DNA of 64,000 nt, from positions 35,553 to 99,552 of the IMG/VR virus record IMGVR_UViG_3300006104_000013; one strand, given 5' to 3'. This document shows positions 45,174 to 60,332 of the stretch, piece after piece. This stretch comes from a virus. The notes under the pieces were generated by a model that saw only the letters and a program-made list of their open reading frames with translations, was not told the origin of the DNA and made no database searches. Both the position numbers and the translations under genes were made by a program. Numbering within the stretch: the first letter of the stretch is position 1; every line of letters begins with the position of its first letter.

Positions 45174-46286
45174 TTACTCCGTCGCATAAACAGGGAATTG
45201 TTGGTCGTCAAAATCGTCGATATCGAAGATGTCGATCCAAGGCACGTCTGGCCCGAAGGTCTTCATCATCTCGTCAAACTTGGCGATGCCCTGGCGCATT
45301 TCCATTTGGCCGATCTGGTACATGGATTTGCGCGGGAACCGGAAGGCGCGAGTCACAGGGGCGCTGCCGGTCATCTGAAAGACGAAGATGAAATCGATGG
45401 GGTCTGACAGTTTGGAGAAGGCCCTGACCCAGCGCGGGTCCGGGTTCCCTTGAAAAATCCCCTGACGAATGAAGGACCGAGCGATAGCCCCGGCGTCCAT
45501 ATAGGCGGCGGCCTGAATGTGGTATTTGTAGGACGCCATGCTGGAATAGATGGCCCTGTCCACCGGCTTATTCATCGGGTTTGAAAAGCTCTTCAGATCG
45601 ACCATCTGACGCAGCTTCAGGTAATCGATGCGGTGCTTGAGTCGGACTCCGGTCGCCGGATCAGTGTGAAGGATCGTCACCTCCGGATACCCGTCACGGA
45701 AGCACTGCGAAATATCCGGGTGCTTCTCGATCATCGCGGCGGCGATCTGGATTCGGCTGATCTGCTTTGCCGAAATCTGGACCAGGCCTTCATTTTCGAT
45801 GGCGTAATCGGCCACGATGCGATCCCAGATTTGAGCGGACGGATCATGCAGATAGATCAGGTTTGCCAGCTCGGGCTTTGATGTCGAGGACTTAAATCCG
45901 ACTCCCATCTCGGTGAGTTTGGTTTTCATGTGCTCGGCCGTCACCAGAGCGTCCGGGTAATCGGCCTTGTCCAGATTCGCAACGAACATGTCGTCGAATT
46001 TTTCCTGACCCTCCAGGATGCGGTAGCCATATGCCCGGCCCAAGATTTTGGCGTCGGTATCGGTGTCCTCTTCATCCTTCATCGGGTTCATCCAGGAGCT
46101 GGCCCAGAAGTGCATGTTCGACACGCGCAGGGCCTTGATGCCGCTGACCGACAGACGGTGGAGCCCGTGATAAACGTCTTCATCCAGGTTAAAATAGACT
46201 CCGTCATCCATGATGCTTGGATGTGGGTATCGATAGGCCACAGCCTCGTGTTTTTGGGTAAGTTCAGGATAGTCCATTTTTTCCAA
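45174..46286 (-). CDS. exonuclease VIII-like PD-(D/E)XK nuclease
   Basis: YH...LS.SGIK, PEV, K.RID...DLKS, YHIQAAAY; start TTG 46286 or ATG 46277. Confidence 0.8.
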   Translation of the reverse strand: MEKMDYPELTQKHEAVAYRYPHPSIMDDGVYFNLDEDVYHGLHRLSVSGIKALRVSNMHFWASSWMNPMKDEEDTDTDAKILGRAYGYRILEGQEKFDDMFVANLDKADYPDALVTAEHMKTKLTEMGVGFKSSTSKPELANLIYLHDPSAQIWDRIVADYAIENEGLVQISAKQISRIQIAAAMIEKHPDISQCFRDGYPEVTILHTDPATGVRLKHRIDYLKLRQMVDLKSFSNPMNKPVDRAIYSSMASYKYHIQAAAYMDAGAIARSFIRQGIFQGNPDPRWVRAFSKLSDPIDFIFVFQMTGSAPVTRAFRFPRKSMYQIGQMEMRQGIAKFDEMMKTFGPDVPWIDIFDIDDFDDQQFPVYATE

Positions 46287-46518
46287 TTATCCCCGCTGCA
46301 ACGATTTTTTTCAGGTAAGACGGTGCTGTAGGGGCGACCATCTCGACGAATTCTTCCTGCCCGTAGATCAGAGACCACTTTATTCCCCAGCAGGTCCGAC
46401 CTTCCCTTCGACACGGAGGTCCGCGCATATCTGGGAGAGGGCCACACCTAGGACACGCCCTAGTTCCGTCTCTACGTTTTGATTTGAGGTGTTTTCCGCA
46501 TTTAGGACAGGACGCCAT
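46264..46518 (-). CDS. small Zn-ribbon protein
   Basis: CPKC...CPRC; RBS GGAGG. Confidence 0.6.
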   Translation of the reverse strand: MASCPKCGKHLKSKRRDGTRACPRCGPLPDMRGPPCRREGRTCWGIKWSLIYGQEEFVEMVAPTAPSYLKKIVAAGIIGKNGLS

Positions 46519-46678
46519 GTTGGCCTCCTGGGTGGAGTTTGGGGACAAGGGCCTTCGCCCGGACTCCTTGGTCCTTGTCCCCGTCCCCTAATCTTGTGCG
46601 AAGCACAACAGACGAGCGAATGCGAGTCTGTATTAGGCCGCTCCCCTGGAGTGTCGGGCAGAGGGTTACAGCCGAATT
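46519..46678 (-). ncRNA. structured intergenic RNA element, copy B
   Basis: Multi-branch fold; shares GTAACCYTCTGCC-N5-CYCYAGRGGAGCGRC with copy A. Confidence 0.5.
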
Positions 46679-46682
46679 CATA

Positions 46683-47057
46683 TTACTTCCCTTCCGCCGG
46701 TTTGCCAAACATTGTTGCCAATGTTCCCATCAATTTATCAGGGATGGCAATCAGGCTGGACGGCAGCCCATGTATGGTAACTGTCGGCGGCGTGAACACC
46801 TTCATCAAAGGTTTCCACCAGATGGCCGCCAAGATGGCGAGAAGCACCACCATGGAGATTTGTGTCCCGGCGAAGAAGTGAACCCCAGCCACCGATTCGA
46901 TGTATGCCAAGTTACTCGGTTCAAGCTCTTTCCCGGACATGATGCCAGATCCGAGAGCGGCGACCGGTGTGATAATGGCATTTACCCACCCGTGAATGAA
47001 AAAGGCGACAACAGATAAAGCCGTCCGCCAAAGGTATCCGTGTAATTTGTCCATCAT
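46683..47057 (-). CDS. membrane protein
   Basis: Hydrophobic segments; RBS AAGGAAAG. Confidence 0.6.
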   Translation of the reverse strand: MMDKLHGYLWRTALSVVAFFIHGWVNAIITPVAALGSGIMSGKELEPSNLAYIESVAGVHFFAGTQISMVVLLAILAAIWWKPLMKVFTPPTVTIHGLPSSLIAIPDKLMGTLATMFGKPAEGK

Positions 47058-47067
47058 ACTTTCCTTA

Positions 47068-47242
47068 AAATCCGAGGATTTAGCCGTTGCATGGTTCACC
47101 GTATAGTCCCCACCCAAACAACGGCCGCCTCCGCATTCGCAGATGAATTTCCGAGAATTGAATAACAATTGTGAATGCAATTGTTTTCTCAAGTCTCGGA
47201 GTCGCTCCTCTAGGGTATTCGGCAGAAGGTTACGACGCGAAT
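47068..47242 (-). ncRNA. structured intergenic RNA element, copy A
   Basis: Four-helix junction incl. long hairpin 47150-47200; shared 5' motif with copy B. Confidence 0.5.
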
Positions 47243-47243
47243 A

Positions 47244-53722: not shown

Positions 53723-54577
53723 ATGACGCACGATATTCGTATATCCACCACATTTATGTCCAATCCGAAAACCGTTAAGCTCATTCGTCGCTGCGGTAAG
53801 TGTGCTCCCTTAAATTTGATCCAGCTATGGTTGAGCGCAGCCGAGAGCCGCCCACTGGGAAGGCTGACAAAATGGGATGCGGAGGACGTCGCTATCGCCA
53901 GCGGGTGGGAGTCTGACCCAGACACATGGGTTAAATGCCTGATAGAAATAGGTTTTGTTGACCTTATCGAAGAAGAAGACTGCTCGTATCAACTTCACGA
54001 CTGGGAGCGTCATAACCCTTTTGTGTTCCATGCAGAAGAGCGCTCTGAACAAGCCAGGAATGCCGCAAAGAAGCGTTGGGGAAAGCGGATTGATGCTGTT
54101 AGTAATGCTGTCAGCATAAGTGAGCAATGCGATACGCAAGAAAACAGCAATGCCCCATATCCTAATCCTAATCCTAATCCTAATCCTAAACATAAAGAGG
54201 GGCCTTCGGCTGAACCAACGACCAAATATGCTTTTGATGGCAAAGTCATCCGCCTGACCGAAAGGGACCATGACAGGTGGAAAAAATCATTCTCGAACAT
54301 CAACCTCGATTCCGTTCTGGAGAGCCGTGACGCTTGGCTGTCAGAGCAACCAGCAGCAGATCGGAAAAAATGGTTTCAGACGACCGCCGCCTATCTTGCA
54401 AACAAAGATACCGAGGCGTTGGCCAGCAAACCACCGGCCTATGACGGGGAGCAACCGGAAGGGTTCATCCCACAGAAGCCAGGATTTTATTACGGGAAGG
54501 AATGGATTTACGACCCTAATATCCAAAAAATCAGACCAGTAAAGCGGCCGGGTGAACGCCCGATCCTGTTGGTGTAG
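53723..54577 (+). CDS. putative replication initiator protein
   Basis: PK...L..R, LW, GF.D...LHDW..HN N-domain; PNPNPNPNP linker; precedes primase. Confidence 0.6.
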   Translation: MTHDIRISTTFMSNPKTVKLIRRCGKCAPLNLIQLWLSAAESRPLGRLTKWDAEDVAIASGWESDPDTWVKCLIEIGFVDLIEEEDCSYQLHDWERHNPFVFHAEERSEQARNAAKKRWGKRIDAVSNAVSISEQCDTQENSNAPYPNPNPNPNPKHKEGPSAEPTTKYAFDGKVIRLTERDHDRWKKSFSNINLDSVLESRDAWLSEQPAADRKKWFQTTAAYLANKDTEALASKPPAYDGEQPEGFIPQKPGFYYGKEWIYDPNIQKIRPVKRPGERPILLV

Positions 54578-54885: not shown

Positions 54886-57800
54886 ATGCTTTCAGGGGAT
54901 GTTATCGCAGCGATCGAGGCGAGGGGCCTTGATCCTGAATTGGTGGCCCGACTCGGGGTTGATGGGACGGACAAGCTGGATGGGGTGGCGATTGCGATCC
55001 CCTATTTTATGAATGGGCAGGTGGTCAACCACAAATACAGGACGCTGACCGGGGAAAAGCGCTTCATGCAGGACGCCAATTCGGTCAAGTGCTTCTGGAA
55101 CATCGATTGCCTTCGGGATGAAAATCTTGCCGATCAACCGCTGATCATCACGGAAGGCGAGTTCGACGCCATCGCCGCACTCCAGTCTGGATTTTTTCGG
55201 GTACTGTCCGTTCCGGACGGAGCCCCAAAGGAGGAGGTTGGCGACCAGGACTCCAAGAAATATTCCTACATCGACGACCGCTTCTATGAGGCGATCAAGG
55301 GAGTCCGGGAAATCATCTTGGCCGTCGATGGGGACGGGCCGGGCGCAAACCTGCTGAACGACCTCGCCCTCAAGCTGGGGAAAAGCCGCTGCAAGTGGGT
55401 CTCATACCCGAAAGGCTGCAAGGACCTGAACGATGCCCTCCGCAAATACGGCGTAAAGGGGGTAAAGATGACCATGGAGCGGGCTCAGTGGCTCCGGGTG
55501 GCTGGACTGTTCAGAATGAGCGAATTGCCGCCTGTGCCAGACGCTACGCCCCTTCCGTCGGGTATCCCAGGTCTGGAGGAGCATTTCAATCTCCGGATGG
55601 GCGATTTTACGGTCATCACCGGAATCCCTTCCCATGGCAAGGCGCTGTATATTGAAACCCCCATTCCGACTCCTTCCGGGTGGACAACAATGGGAGAACT
55701 TCGCGTAGGGGACGTTGTTTTTGGCGACGACGGAATTCCGTGCCGTGTGAAGCGCATAACGCCTGTGATGCATGACCACGACTGTTTTAAAATGATTTTT
55801 TCAGATGGAAGCGAGCTGATTGCGGACGCTGATCATCAATGGTTGACCAGCACAGATAAAGCGCGGAGAAGTGAGCGAGAGACGTTAAAAAAGCGCAACG
55901 GCAGGGAGGAGACTCTTCCAGGGGGGAGTGACCAGCGATGGAAAAGAACGTATCCGTCCGTCGTCACAACAAAAGAAATATCAACAACTCTTAGGGCGCA
56001 GGGAAAGTGGAATCACCAGATTCAAAACGCAAAACCTCTTTCCTTGCCGATGATGAATGTTCCGATTCCACCCTATACTCTTGGAGTATGGCTTGGTGAC
56101 GGATATTCTTCGTCAGGGGCTGTAACGTGCTTTGACCACGAAATTATTGACTGCGTTAGCGCTGATGGGGTCGTTGCTCGCGCAAGAAAGAATGATGAAA
56201 ATTCCTTCTGCTTGATTGGTATCCAGCCTGTTCTCCGTAAAATTGGAGTTTTAGGGAACAAGCATATCCCTGCATCATATCTCCGCTCGTCGGAAGAGCA
56301 GCGCCTAGAATTGCTTAAGGGGCTTATGGACACCGACGGTTATTGCGCAAAAGACGGGACTTGCGAAATAACCCTGACCAACCATCAATTGGCTATGGAT
56401 ACATACGAAGTTATTTGCAGCCTTGGCCTTCGTGCAAAATGGATGGAGGGAAGAGCCACCCTCAATGGCCGCGATATAAGTGCTAAATATCGCATTCAAT
56501 TTACCCCTCCGTATGCTGTTTTTAAGCTAAAGCGCAAGGCGAATCGCCAGAGATATTCCGGCCAAAACAGGGCGAAGACATCGTACAGAACCGTAATGGG
56601 ATGCGTTTCTGTCCCATCTGTTCCTGTTCGGTGCATCGAGGTAGACAGCCCATCCCATATGTTTTTGGCTGGTCGTGAAATGATCCCAACACATAACTCG
56701 TCTTTTGTGAACGATCTGGTCTGCCATTACGTCGAGCGCTACGGGTTCAACGTCACCTTTGCCTCGTTCGAGCAGCATCCCCAGCTCGACCACAAGCGCA
56801 ATCTGCGCCGCTGGCACGCCAAGGTGAAGGTCCATTCGGCGACTCGCGAGGAACTGGAGCTGGCCGACATCTGGATCGACCAGCACTTCAGCTTCATTGT
56901 CCCGGACGAAGACGAGGACGCGACTCTGGCGTGGTGCCTGGAGCGGTGCGCCGCGTCGGTCATCCAGCACGGCAGCAAGATCATCGTCATCGACCCATGG
57001 AACGAGATGGATCACATCAAGGCCCCGGACCAGAGTCTGACCGAATATGTGGGTTACGCGATCAAGCAGTTCAAAAAGTTCGCTCGGAAATACCATGTCC
57101 ATGTGATCGTCGTCGCCCACCCGGCCAAGCTGAAGCGTAAGGACGATGGCGAGTTTCCGATCCCTGATCTGTACGATATTTCCGACTGTTATTCGGACGA
57201 CACAGAGGCTTTAACCAAGCGCGGTTGGCTGCGTCACGAAGAAATGGTCGTCACCGACGAGGTTATGTGCTTTGACCTGGAGACCGGAGAAAACCGCTGG
57301 GAGAGTCCGGAGAGGATTGTCTGCCACGACTTCGATGGCGAGATGATGAATTTCGTGGGTTACGGATACGACCTGCTGGTGAGTCCAAACCACAGGATGG
57401 TCATCAAGCCGGACTGGAAAGAGCCTGTCGGAGATGGATCTGGCCGTGGCCGTCCGGTGAAATACCAGAAGGGGGTCTGGGGCTTTGAGACCGCCTCACG
57501 CCTTCCGAAAGCGCCGTTCACACTCCCAAAGGCAGGGACTCCGGTGGACGGAGACGATCCGGATCTTCTGACGATCGATGGGAAGGTAATTCCTGCCCTG
57601 GAGTTCGCCGAATTCATGGGACTCTGGGTTGCCGAGGGCTGCTGGCAAAGCAGTGGTATCAGCATGTGCCAAAAAGAAGGGCCGGTCGCCGATCGTATCG
57701 ACCATTTGATCGAGGCGTTAGGGTTCTCGGCCACACGGGCTGTTCATTACGACAAGCGGGGGCTCCTGCCGATCGTGACGTGGTATTTCGGCGTCAGAGA

Positions 57801-58425
57801 TAACCCGGAATTGATCCGCTGGGTACGCGGAAAAGCCGGAGAGAATTCTGCGACCCGGTGCATTCCTTACCCGTTTTTCAGCATGTCATCCCGTATCAAG
57901 GTCGAGTTCCTGAATGGGTATATTGCCGGGGACGGGTGCATCTCGAAGAACCGAGGAACGCCGTCGGCAGTGACGTCGTCGCCCCGACTCTATGGGGAAT
58001 TGCAGCGCCTTGCCGTCGAGCTGGGGATACCTGTGAATGGCCACCGCATCGCCGCTAAAAAGGAAAACCACAACGATACCTACCAGATCAATTTTGGAAG
58101 GGGTGAACGGAGTGAGGTCTGCGTTCGGACCTACCGAAACCTCAAGACGGTTCCGTACTCAGGAAAAATCTGGTGCCTGACCGTTCCGACCGGGGCCTAC
58201 TATGTCCGGCGCAATGGCTGCGTCGCGGTCTGCGGCAACTCCAGCCACTGGAACAACAAGCCGGACGCCGGGATTGTCGTGCATAGGTCTTCACCAACGG
58301 AGTCGCTTATCCGGATCGTCAAGTCGCGGTATCACGACTCCATCGGCAAGCCGGGCGAGAAGACGTACAGCTTCAACGACCACAATGGGCGTTATCAGTG
58401 GGTGGATGAAATCAATGAATTTTAG
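54886..58425 (+). CDS. TOPRIM primase-SF4 helicase (T7 gp4/Twinkle-like) with two inteins
   Basis: ITEGEFDA, D.D..G, KDLND; Walker A GIPSHGK|S; IIVIDPWN; VAHP.K; ~476-aa extein. Confidence 0.92.
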   Translation: MLSGDVIAAIEARGLDPELVARLGVDGTDKLDGVAIAIPYFMNGQVVNHKYRTLTGEKRFMQDANSVKCFWNIDCLRDENLADQPLIITEGEFDAIAALQSGFFRVLSVPDGAPKEEVGDQDSKKYSYIDDRFYEAIKGVREIILAVDGDGPGANLLNDLALKLGKSRCKWVSYPKGCKDLNDALRKYGVKGVKMTMERAQWLRVAGLFRMSELPPVPDATPLPSGIPGLEEHFNLRMGDFTVITGIPSHGKALYIETPIPTPSGWTTMGELRVGDVVFGDDGIPCRVKRITPVMHDHDCFKMIFSDGSELIADADHQWLTSTDKARRSERETLKKRNGREETLPGGSDQRWKRTYPSVVTTKEISTTLRAQGKWNHQIQNAKPLSLPMMNVPIPPYTLGVWLGDGYSSSGAVTCFDHEIIDCVSADGVVARARKNDENSFCLIGIQPVLRKIGVLGNKHIPASYLRSSEEQRLELLKGLMDTDGYCAKDGTCEITLTNHQLAMDTYEVICSLGLRAKWMEGRATLNGRDISAKYRIQFTPPYAVFKLKRKANRQRYSGQNRAKTSYRTVMGCVSVPSVPVRCIEVDSPSHMFLAGREMIPTHNSSFVNDLVCHYVERYGFNVTFASFEQHPQLDHKRNLRRWHAKVKVHSATREELELADIWIDQHFSFIVPDEDEDATLAWCLERCAASVIQHGSKIIVIDPWNEMDHIKAPDQSLTEYVGYAIKQFKKFARKYHVHVIVVAHPAKLKRKDDGEFPIPDLYDISDCYSDDTEALTKRGWLRHEEMVVTDEVMCFDLETGENRWESPERIVCHDFDGEMMNFVGYGYDLLVSPNHRMVIKPDWKEPVGDGSGRGRPVKYQKGVWGFETASRLPKAPFTLPKAGTPVDGDDPDLLTIDGKVIPALEFAEFMGLWVAEGCWQSSGISMCQKEGPVADRIDHLIEALGFSATRAVHYDKRGLLPIVTWYFGVRDNPELIRWVRGKAGENSATRCIPYPFFSMSSRIKVEFLNGYIAGDGCISKNRGTPSAVTSSPRLYGELQRLAVELGIPVNGHRIAAKKENHNDTYQINFGRGERSEVCVRTYRNLKTVPYSGKIWCLTVPTGAYYVRRNGCVAVCGNSSHWNNKPDAGIVVHRSSPTESLIRIVKSRYHDSIGKPGEKTYSFNDHNGRYQWVDEINEF
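55642..56697 (+). mobile_element. class 3 (Ala1, WCT) intein with LAGLIDADG endonuclease
   Basis: GK|ALYIETPIPTPSGW...ADADHQW...LGVWLGDG...GLMDTDG...VRCIEV...IPTHN|S; 352 aa. Confidence 0.9.
57187..58239 (+). mobile_element. class 1 intein with LAGLIDADG endonuclease
   Basis: ISD|CYSDDTEALTKRGW...VSPNHRM...GLWVAEG...GYIAGDG...IWCLTVP...VCGN|S; 351 aa. Confidence 0.9.
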
Positions 58426-58431
58426 GGGAAG

Positions 58432-58461
58432 CCGTGTTTTGTCAGATTTGACAAAACACGG
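58432..58461. terminator. perfect 13-bp hairpin between convergent units
   Basis: CCGTGTTTTGTCA-GATT-TGACAAAACACGG. Confidence 0.65.
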
Positions 58462-59100
58462 TGATCAAGATCAATCGGGGTGTCCGGTCACATTATCCGC
58501 CCAAGGTGAGAAATCTGCCGACAGCACCGGACTGCGGCCCAAGGGCGGCCCGATTTAAAACTGGCTGGGGCCACCTGACGGCGGTGATTGCCCCATTCTC
58601 CTATCCCGTCTGTCACCGGGCTCTACCCGGTCTCTGGCCCCGCTTTGGTGACGTCCCCATCGCGGTATATAAGCCGACAACCGGAGTCGCCGGGAGCGCC
58701 GAAGCGCGAAGTCCAAAAACAAAGTGGCCGTGGGCGGAGAAACTGTCAAGGAAACTCACCCACGGCCATGTACCAGATCGGGAAGCGCTGGTTCGCCTTG
58801 CGATGGGGCATGAGTCCCACATCCCTGTCGTGGATTAGAGTGCAACGACTAGCGCACATTGGATCGGCTTTCGCCTTTCCGCTGCGGCATCCATGGTTCC
58901 TGGGGGATAGGCTACCGCAGTTTTGTTCTCGCCGTTCCGGAACCCTTTTTTCCGGCTTAGGTATCTCAGCTAGGGCTGAGACGGCGAACGCTTGGACTCG
59001 AACCAAGGACCTTCTGGTTATGAGCCAGACGAGCTGCCGCTGCTCCACGCCGCCGAACTAAAGGCCCACCGTTTTGCACGTGCGTGTGGTGGGCCGTGAC
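58462..59100 (-). ncRNA. large structured non-coding transcript containing tRNA
   Basis: Dedicated promoter, >12 helices, GAAA and UUCG tetraloops on minus strand, no credible ORF. Confidence 0.6.
58982..59054 (-). tRNA. tRNA with CAT anticodon (Met, initiator-like), atypical acceptor stem
   Basis: GGCGGCGTGGAGCAGCGGCAGCTCGTCTGGCTCATAACCAGAAGGTCCTTGGTTCGAGTCCAAGCGTTCGCCG. Confidence 0.8.
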
Positions 59101-59107
59101 AAGAAGG

Positions 59108-59136
59108 ATCGTAACCCACATGGATTTAGGTGTCAA
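59108..59136 (-). promoter_or_regulatory. strong sigma70 promoter for ncRNA/tRNA unit
   Basis: TTGACA-17 nt-TACGAT. Confidence 0.75.
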
Positions 59137-59795
59137 CCACTAAAAGAGCCACCACCACCGCCTGCGCCGTTCCCGCCAAAAAACATCGGTCCACTTGGCG
59201 AATGATACATTGCGCCATTGGGCATCGGTTCGACCTCGAACATATATTCGTCGAGCTTTTCCATCGCCGCCGTGTTGACGGAAAGGGATTCCTCGGCCTG
59301 CTTGATCCCGACATTAAGGTTCATGATGCTTGCCCGCAAGCTTTCGGCCAAAAGATTGGTGCCGACTCCGCTCTTGTTCTTGAACTTTGTCGCCAGCTTT
59401 ATGAGCCGATCACGTTCCTTCGTAAAAGAGGCGTGATCCTCTTTGATCTTTTTTATCATCACGCGAAACGCGGCCTTCATCAGATCAACAACGTCCCGAT
59501 AGACGACGCTGTCGCCGTAGGCTTGCAGGATCTGCTGGAGAGCCCCGGCCAGTTGGGCGCTGATTGCGGCCTCCCGGTTGTTTGGGGCCGTTTCAGCATA
59601 TTGCCCGGTCTCGTCGTATCTCTTGCGCCGATCCTCGTCGCCCAGGACGTCGGCAGCCAGCTTAACCAAAGCAAACGATGCACCGTCACCACCGGTATCG
59701 GGATGGGCGCTCTTTGCGGCGTTCCGATAGGCTTTTTTAATCTCGTCCGGAGTCGCGTCACGTCCGACACCGAGAACATCATAAAGATCGTCCAT
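59133..59795 (-). CDS. J-domain (DnaJ-like) protein
   Basis: DLYDVLGV...EIKKAYR..AK..HPD. Confidence 0.9.
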   Translation of the reverse strand: MDDLYDVLGVGRDATPDEIKKAYRNAAKSAHPDTGGDGASFALVKLAADVLGDEDRRKRYDETGQYAETAPNNREAAISAQLAGALQQILQAYGDSVVYRDVVDLMKAAFRVMIKKIKEDHASFTKERDRLIKLATKFKNKSGVGTNLLAESLRASIMNLNVGIKQAEESLSVNTAAMEKLDEYMFEVEPMPNGAMYHSPSGPMFFGGNGAGGGGGSFSG

Positions 59796-59807: not shown

Positions 59808-60332
59808 CTAGTAGGCGCTCAAATCAAATTTGTCGTAGGTCTTCTTGCGCAAGGTCAGCTTATAACCGTCCGCATTTTTATAGTTATATTTGCCGGACCC
59901 AGATTGCGATTGAATGATGTCGGCGGGCGTGAAAATGGCATCGATCCATTCGCGGTCCCCATTCTTTGCTTTCTTCTCGCCGTAGCACCCGCAGCGACGA
60001 ACAATTCCCGTGAGCGGGTTGCCCTGACTTGCCGCCAGCGTGGAAATGCGCTTGGCCAGCAGGCTTTTGCCAGATCCTTTTTCACCGTTCAGCATCACGC
60101 CGGTCGCAGCGTCACGGGTATTGAATGTGGTCAAGATGCGTTGGGCATGGCGCTCGGTGTCACCGTAGAGCTTCGGCGGCAGAGTGAAGTCCTCGACCAT
60201 TTCCAAATAAAGCTCACCTTCCGGGCTGCATTTGACCATATAGGTGCCGACGGGCAACATTTTGTGCATGTCGAGATTGAGTTCGTCGGTCAGCCGGTAA
60301 TGATCCCCGCTGCGCAAAAAAATAGTACCCAT
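59808..60332 (-). pseudogene. truncated/chimeric AAA ATPase
   Basis: Walker A GEKGSGKS but no Walker B; unrelated C-terminus. Confidence 0.55.

Follow-up and report, generated by a model that had tools for sequence, protein, structure and literature searches.

The 64,000-nt stretch of virus DNA analysed here (hereafter the window) is the right-hand 64 kb of the 99,552-bp IMG/VR virus record IMGVR_UViG_3300006104_000013, the completeness of which is estimated at 87%. At positions 58432-59136 it contains what we read as a minus-strand tRNA-Met transcription unit with a long, hairpin-rich non-coding trailer, belonging to an uncultured freshwater phage probably of Alphaproteobacteria; we give this reading a probability of about 0.5. 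A first-pass annotation of the same DNA had proposed either a single large, ornate non-coding RNA (ncRNA) akin to GOLLD and ROOL, or a cluster of small RNAs processed via the embedded tRNA. The second option fits, because the region is non-coding, is probably co-transcribed with the tRNA and carries hairpins that look selected. All the features listed in that annotation are present in the DNA, but folding beyond chance was found in only part of the trailer.

The unit occupies a gene-free gap of 707 nt between two convergent genes, one for a primase-helicase (plus strand, 54886-58425) and one for a J-domain protein (minus strand, 59133-59795). According to a rough map of open reading frames (ORFs), the convergent junctions elsewhere in the genome measure 20-170 nt, and the gap is therefore unusually long. 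It is non-coding. All gap ORFs of at least 30 amino acids (aa), on both strands, scored negative on a codon model trained on the long genes of the phage, where most real genes score +0.05 to +0.4 and three of 30 sampled fell slightly below zero. In addition, the G+C content at second codon positions is 0.50-0.69 in these ORFs versus 0.32-0.48 in real genes, and none of the ORFs matched Pfam or PHROGs. A 125-aa plus-strand frame, searched with HMMER against 1.84 billion proteins, gave two weak matches made up of many short stretches (15 and 7), which were judged non-homologous.

Just upstream of the tRNA, and overlapping the stop codon of the J-domain gene, lies the sigma-70-like promoter that had been noticed earlier, TTGACA-17-TACGAT (59136-59108, minus strand; predicted start at about 59101). 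It is the sole site in the genome with a perfect -35 element and a 17-nt spacer, and it lies less than 60 nt from the tRNA on the same strand; we estimate that a chance site would be so placed in about three cases per 1000. Its use is presumed from the sequence. The next element, the leader hairpin (59063-59095, minus strand), is likewise present; its GC-rich stem is 8 bp long, and UUUAGUU comes after it (-18.6 kcal/mol; z = -2.5; pair probability 1.00). The hairpin may belong to the 5' leader as an element of its own or else weakly terminate the leftward operon upstream. The embedded tRNA is a real tRNA gene, a tRNA-Met with anticodon CAU (58983-59055, minus strand), called by ARAGORN and scoring 49.1 bits with the Rfam tRNA model (RF00005; gathering score 29). 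It has initiator-like D and anticodon arms (A11-U24) and does not encode CCA; its anticodon arm is common to at least 119 other phage contigs. Meanwhile, the anticodon stem holds only two G-C pairs, and the acceptor stem is irregular, having 6 bp and a bulged U in the Rfam alignment as well as a G1-C72 pair. From these features the tRNA may be either defective or specialised.

The three GNRA/UNCG tetraloops of the predicted fold give the strongest evidence that a minus-strand RNA is real. The minimum-energy fold of the minus strand contains six tetraloop hairpins, three of them with exceptionally stable GNRA or UNCG loops (GAAA, UUCG and UCCG), whereas no GNRA/UNCG loop occurs in the plus-strand fold, in agreement with the earlier remark that the tetraloops are oriented with the promoter. 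Among 250 dinucleotide shuffles, 223 had no such loop, 26 had one, a single shuffle had two, and none reached three. A count of three is also unique among 360 genome strand-windows, of which four have two. The UCCG hairpin contains two G-U pairs, which become A-C mismatches on the other strand, and hence it forms on the minus strand only; similarly, the U-tract that follows the hairpin at 58768-58725 is present on the minus strand only. Taken together, tetraloop bias, G-U pairs and U-tract favour transcription of the minus strand and selection on at least some of the hairpins as RNA, and they are compatible with one or with several molecules. One of the four runners-up in the genome scan is the stretch 46310-46860 (minus strand), with six tetraloop hairpins, two of them GNRA/UNCG; it overlaps a pair of intergenic RNA elements noted at first pass at 46519-47243.

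The folding of the 551-nt trailer was compared with that of dinucleotide shuffles, which are a lenient control for it. For the trailer, the minus strand gave z = -4.38 and the plus strand -3.44; inclusion of the leader and tRNA gave z = -4.6. The overall value bears out the prediction that the region folds better than its shuffles, but the signal comes from only three segments, namely 58861-58982 (z = -4.0), 58708-58772 (z = -3.2) and a 13-bp hairpin (z = -6.6). The other four segments stay near their shuffles (58770-58860, +0.4; 58617-58712, -0.7; 58560-58616, -0.25; 58466-58559, -1.5). With four of the seven segments no different in folding from their shuffles, composition (58% G+C) alone accounts for the fold of about half of the trailer length. 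In the minimum-energy fold 64% of the bases are paired, a value that has no shuffle baseline, and the G+C content of the region is 58.6%, compared with 55.5% for the genome.

Every local helix that had been listed was found, and the trailer is described here from 5' to 3' on the minus strand. Block S1 (58861-58982; z = -4.04 on the minus and -1.75 on the plus strand) is predicted to form four clean hairpins with pair probabilities of 0.92-1.00: H1, of 8 bp, abuts the 3' end of the tRNA; H2, with the stem CCGGAA/UUCCGG, sits within a CC/GG clamp bearing CCUAAG; H3 has the stem CUGCGGUA/UGCCGCAG; and H4 is GGC-GAAA-GCC. The CCUAAG flanks H2 (58932-58960, minus strand) and, as we take it, is the 5' half of the 11-nt receptor of GAAA tetraloops; the opposite strand reads AACGG instead of UAUGG, and the GAAA loop (58866-58875) lies 70 nt downstream, so that the pair could make a tertiary contact or be a coincidence. 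S1 is followed by a poorly structured linker of about 90 nt (58770-58860; z = +0.41; empty centroid), which holds ACAGGGAUGU at 58819-58828.

The linker leads into an element resembling an intrinsic terminator (58715-58768, minus strand), in which a 12+2-bp stem (58768-58725) with a 15-nt loop is followed by CUUUGUUUUU (-24.8 kcal/mol; z = -3.2). With a GC-rich hairpin and a U-tract directly 3' of it on the minus strand (58768-58715), it has the make-up of a Rho-independent terminator, and in a loose genome scan it was the second strongest hairpin-plus-U-tract on that strand. On the assumption that the predicted hairpin terminates transcription, the tRNA unit would probably have its main 3' end here. 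A 21-codon ORF (MPHRKANQRFPIWYMAVGEFP; 58746-58813, minus strand) has GGGA about 5 nt upstream and its stop codon inside the loop of this hairpin; translation of this putative ORF could in principle open the terminator.

Past the U-tract lie two adjacent UNCG-capped hairpins, GCGC-UUCG-GCGC and CCGGCGAC-UCCG-GUUGUCGG (58674-58707, minus strand; pair probabilities 0.98-0.99). They are followed by sequence of moderate folding and by a branched domain (58473-58555, minus strand) closed by AAUCGGG/CCCGAUU and CCGCCC/GGGCGG, whose pair probabilities are 0.92-1.00 and whose local z is only -1.5; both arms of an alternative 7-nt pairing, GUCCGGU/ACCGGAC, are also present in the sequence of this domain. 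The perfect 13-bp hairpin (58432-58461) ends the region 6 nt past the primase-helicase stop codon. It has no U-tract on either strand and is likely a 3'-end or insulator element of the convergent units.

A transcription unit of the following kind would account for these elements. The polymerase would come in either from the promoter-like site (59136-59108) or by reading through from the J-domain operon, and would pass the leader hairpin, the tRNA and the four stable hairpins of S1 (58861-58982). It would mostly stop at the 58768-58715 hairpin and U-tract, giving a precursor of about 390 nt in which the leader and the tRNA precede some 270 nt of trailer. Cleavage by RNase P and maturation of the 3' end would then free the tRNA and leave a structured trailer RNA of about 120-270 nt, which might persist as a small stable RNA or serve processing and termination only. 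Transcripts that read past the terminator-like element would gain the two UNCG hairpins and the branched domain and run as far as the 13-bp hairpin, which sets the unit apart from the primase-helicase gene that converges on it. The use of the promoter, the termination and processing of the transcript and any role in trans are what we infer from the arrangement of the elements.

Several results weigh against this model. Promoter matches at 10 of 12 positions number five in the genome, and 5.35 are expected from Markov controls, so that as a class such matches carry no meaning. When the trailer is set against 180 non-overlapping 551-nt genome windows and regressed on G+C, its folding lies at only -2.1 standard deviations (SD), which is fourth place among the 180 for the minus strand, while the plus strand takes first place; likewise, S1 ranks 78th among 1630 genome windows of 122 nt, at -1.6 SD. 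The leader hairpin with its UUUAGUU, situated between promoter and tRNA, could stop transcripts early, and the tRNA-Met with its irregular acceptor stem may be decaying. Since the UNCG hairpins come after the proposed terminator, only transcripts that read through would include them, and a longer RNA is the better fit for this. Finally, no homologue was found by any route in the databases and loci searched, from which very near records may have been excluded, so neither covariation nor conservation can be called upon as evidence.

These searches were extensive. The cmscan program was run on 1001 and 565 bases against all 4227 families of Rfam 15, both at gathering score and at expect values (E) up to 10. 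Rfam includes GOLLD, ROOL and OLE (PMC12286853). The tRNA alone reached a gathering threshold, and the only additional matches at E ≤ 10 were three with E of 7-9, regarded as noise; the Infernal comparison proposed at first pass thus returned nothing beyond the tRNA. A direct search of the genome with the ROOL model (RF03087) yielded no match at E ≤ 10, nor did control genomes, and the STnc100 model had no match in the region (gathering score and E ≤ 10). With blastn, the region gave nothing but tRNA matches among cultured phages and no homologue among plasmids. A second copy of the region was not found in the genome itself, and exact patterns from the trailer and the tRNA arms led to no homologue in IMG/VR and the metagenomes of the Joint Genome Institute (JGI). 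The result was the same when the trailer was searched with nhmmer on about 4 Mb of related loci, collected via the J-domain, primase, ATPase and structural proteins and via bacterial primase relatives, and no trailer homologue was found in the sequence that follows 119 phage tRNA-Met genes sharing the anticodon arm of this one. Five, then 401 alphaproteobacterial genomes gave only short matches at chance level, and a covariance model of S1 run on about 1.8 Mb gave a single weak match (24 bits, in locus L295) that lacks hairpin H3 and was judged noise.

Judged by these models, the region belongs to none of GOLLD, ROOL, Csr/Rsm and transfer-messenger RNA (tmRNA); it stands as an orphan RNA candidate whose statistical support is modest. 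As a singleton it makes comparative validation impossible, and its value is that of a flagged candidate. Two other identities were ruled out. A bacterial Y RNA (YrlA-like) has no Rfam match here, and no TROVE domain, and hence no Ro60/Rsr gene, was found in the 99.5-kb record; a phage attachment site (attP) would call for a tyrosine integrase, and none is present in the record.

The first-pass annotation had placed foremost a single ornate RNA of about 640 nt akin to GOLLD and ROOL, for which the analysis gave no support. As a rival to our reading, it would be one ornate, tRNA-linked ncRNA of about 550-670 nt, of a new class and with a role comparable to that of GOLLD and ROOL, in which the internal hairpin and U-tract would be structural. 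The folding scores (z = -4.4 for the trailer and -4.6 with tRNA and leader) can be read in its favour, as can the GNRA/UNCG hairpins that flank the terminator-like element on both sides and the occurrence of the presumed receptor half CCUAAG and the GAAA loop in one block. When the full length is folded, 58630-58637 pairs with the U-tract (P = 0.92), and a multi-hairpin domain is closed in this way; this predicted pairing, with the UNCG hairpins just past the terminator, is the best argument for a longer RNA. GOLLD and ROOL, too, are phage-encoded, non-coding, several hundred nucleotides long and adjoin tRNA genes, as this region adjoins a tRNA-Met directly upstream on the same strand; GOLLD is also found in lake metagenomes. 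Both families are found close to tRNA islands, and in one case a GOLLD follows a Met-tRNA (PMC12286853). The region differs from both in having no covariance-model match at E ≤ 10 (ROOL having also been searched directly), no family of homologues and hence no covariation, no supported pseudoknots or long-range helices, and a terminator-like element in its interior. The 9-bp long-range helix reported earlier, CCCCAUCGC/GCGAUGGGG (58800-08/58655-63), does exist as a complementarity, but it is not favoured in the ensemble (P = 0.0005) and costs 5.9 kcal/mol to force, and by a rough count about 0.5 perfect 9-mer complements are expected by chance within 550 nt. A 13-bp helix between leader and trailer, proposed by the leader-inclusive fold, was rejected as a processing stalk, since helices of at least 13 bp spanning at least 300 nt occurred in 48 of 350 shuffles (14%). 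Moreover, four of the seven segments fold like shuffles, and a strong terminator-like element would act co-transcriptionally, before its downstream partner is made. The folds thus give no support to a global architecture, but single-sequence thermodynamics is too weak at such length for them to count decisively against one. On balance we regard a single large RNA of this kind as doubtful, and slightly more doubtful still its fuller version, in which the 550-670 nt would be one self-folding and perhaps multimeric GOLLD/ROOL-like RNA of a new class, restricted to an almost unsampled lineage of alphaproteobacterial freshwater phages.

The region might instead be mostly functionless spacer, left by a decayed tRNA array or by deleted genes and furnished with ordinary terminators of the two convergent units, while its remaining hairpins would have arisen by chance in sequence of 58% G+C. 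Arrays of up to 10 tRNAs lie near the relatives of the neighbouring ATPase, the sole tRNA here has a defective acceptor stem, and the ATPase itself is without its middle part; in addition, the genome-based folding score is only about -2 SD and half of the region folds like shuffles. However, no pseudo-tRNA was found, as the Rfam tRNA model at E ≤ 10 gives one gene and ARAGORN at lowered thresholds gives implausible calls only, and the one-strand GNRA/UNCG enrichment is unique in the genome and not a tRNA feature. Spacer is thus a possibility to be kept in mind, if not a likely one. A phage replication origin, lying directly downstream of an initiator-like gene (53723-54577) and of the primase-helicase gene and activated by the promoter-like site, appears very unlikely: there are no iterons or repeat families beyond chance pairs of 9-14 nt, the G+C content (58.6% versus 55.5% for the genome) leaves no AT-rich unwinding element, and the tetraloop bias points to a function at the RNA level. 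Even less can be said for a sponge or decoy RNA of CsrA/RsmA with ACAGGGAUGU as a high-affinity site. The CsrA/Rsm-like sequence pointed out at first pass, ACAGGGATGT at 58819-58828, is indeed an exact match to the core ACARGGAUGU obtained by systematic evolution of ligands by exponential enrichment, the only one in the 64-kb window, and a second GGAUG lies 69 nt upstream. However, known CsrA sponges carry many GGA loops, and here the site is single and outside the predicted loops, its GGA being predicted paired (unpaired probability 0.01-0.18). GGA is not enriched in the region as in CsrB/RsmZ-type sponges (13 versus 10.4 expected, and 10 on the other strand), and no Csr/Rsm family of Rfam matched. 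The least probable of all is a divergent permuted (two-piece) tmRNA for which the tRNA would supply the T arm. With its threshold set to 80%, ARAGORN reports one at 58800-59071, the 3' acceptor strand of the tRNA can pair with 58928-58935, and real permuted tmRNAs occur in relatives of the neighbouring ATPase (contigs L182 and L172); yet at that threshold the program makes 47 calls over the 100-kb genome of this phage and 706 over 1.8 Mb of loci. No tmRNA model matched at E ≤ 10, G3-U70 and an ALAA-type tag end are lacking, and the tRNA has full D and anticodon arms, so this reading is effectively refuted.

Compared with known RNAs that arise beside tRNAs, the tRNA-Met unit has partial parallels. 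In the tRNA cluster of phage T4, the species 1 and 2 RNAs (rnaC and rnaD) are structured non-tRNA RNAs of about 120-140 nt that are co-transcribed with the phage tRNAs and released by tRNA-processing enzymes; to our knowledge, their function is still unknown. S1, at 122 nt, is of similar size, whereas a sequence relation is not to be expected, and expression and processing are in our case presumed. In Escherichia coli, the 3' external transcribed spacer 3'ETS-leuZ, of about 50 nt, is a sponge that pairs with known small RNAs. Like that functional spacer RNA, the candidate here would come from the trailer of a tRNA transcript and end at the operon terminator, the trailer here being longer. From the structured tRNA trailers of lambdoid prophages (STnc100/PasD-related) the unit differs in phage lineage, in host class and in its place at the end of the replication module. 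The only lead to a target is a stretch of the trailer just 5' of the terminator stem (58766-58781) that is a perfect 16-nt complement to 45310-45325 (blastn-short E = 0.011). The latter lies in an exonuclease VIII-like gene (45174-46286, minus strand), about 140 nt before its stop codon, and the complementarity could mark an antisense target in this phage mRNA or be due to chance.

More generally, phage tRNA genes often precede a folded ncRNA of unknown role, as exemplified by GOLLD, ROOL, the stable RNAs of T4 and prophage tRNA trailers. A further unrelated example, from a freshwater lineage without a cultured relative, would support the idea that tRNA trailers are a general birthplace of new phage RNAs, with the tRNA as a built-in processing signal.

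The source phage is uncultured, comes from freshwater and has no close relative. Near-identical sequence is present in 18 freshwater metagenome runs from 2017, possibly from a single campaign, with no RNA run listed among the 18. The contigs from four lake-series runs are identical to the window in all their pieces, with zero variants, and therefore do not inform on constraint either way. The structural protein shares at most 47% identity with other IMG/VR contigs, and the primase domain at most 61% within IMG/VR and 32% with the nearest cultured phage, Bradyrhizobium phage BDU-MI-1, in which synteny with the present phage was not found. Among bacterial genomes, the best relatives of the primase are in alphaproteobacterial assemblies, which suggests Alphaproteobacteria as the host class.

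The genes around the gap have some features of their own. The replication-initiator-like gene (53723-54577) lies upstream of both the primase-helicase gene and the gap. The primase-helicase (54886-58425, plus strand; 1179 aa) carries two intein-like insertions: the one is Hint-like, located immediately after the GK of Walker A, and has Ala rather than Cys or Ser as its first residue, and the other contains a LAGLIDADG homing endonuclease. For the C-terminal part of the J-domain protein no relative was found among 5.8 billion proteins or metagenome contigs. The neighbouring ATPase (phrog_2376; 59808-60332, minus strand) has 174 aa, compared with about 360 aa in its relatives; its N-terminal approximately 110 residues, including Walker A, and its C-terminal approximately 65 residues align to them, and the middle is missing. 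The ATPase gene is thus internally deleted and not split, and a split gene running on into the gap was rejected.

Within a few kilobases of the relatives of this ATPase in IMG/VR phages lie arrays of 5-10 tRNAs or a two-piece tmRNA of the permuted, beta type. Permuted tmRNAs were located in L182 (6705-7093) and L172 (1-162), and contigs L166, L167, L175 and L177 also belong to this set of phages with nearby tmRNA or tRNA arrays. Judging from these contigs, the neighbourhood of the ATPase is a usual site for stable-RNA genes in the phages that carry it, which speaks for the transcription unit proposed above, and the ATPase seems to travel together with such genes. A tRNA with a CUA anticodon, labelled 'Pyl' by ARAGORN, is encoded on three phage contigs (L182, 3475-3549; L183, 3475-3549; L184, 2357-2431); this amber-suppressor tRNA hints at TAG recoding in these phages.

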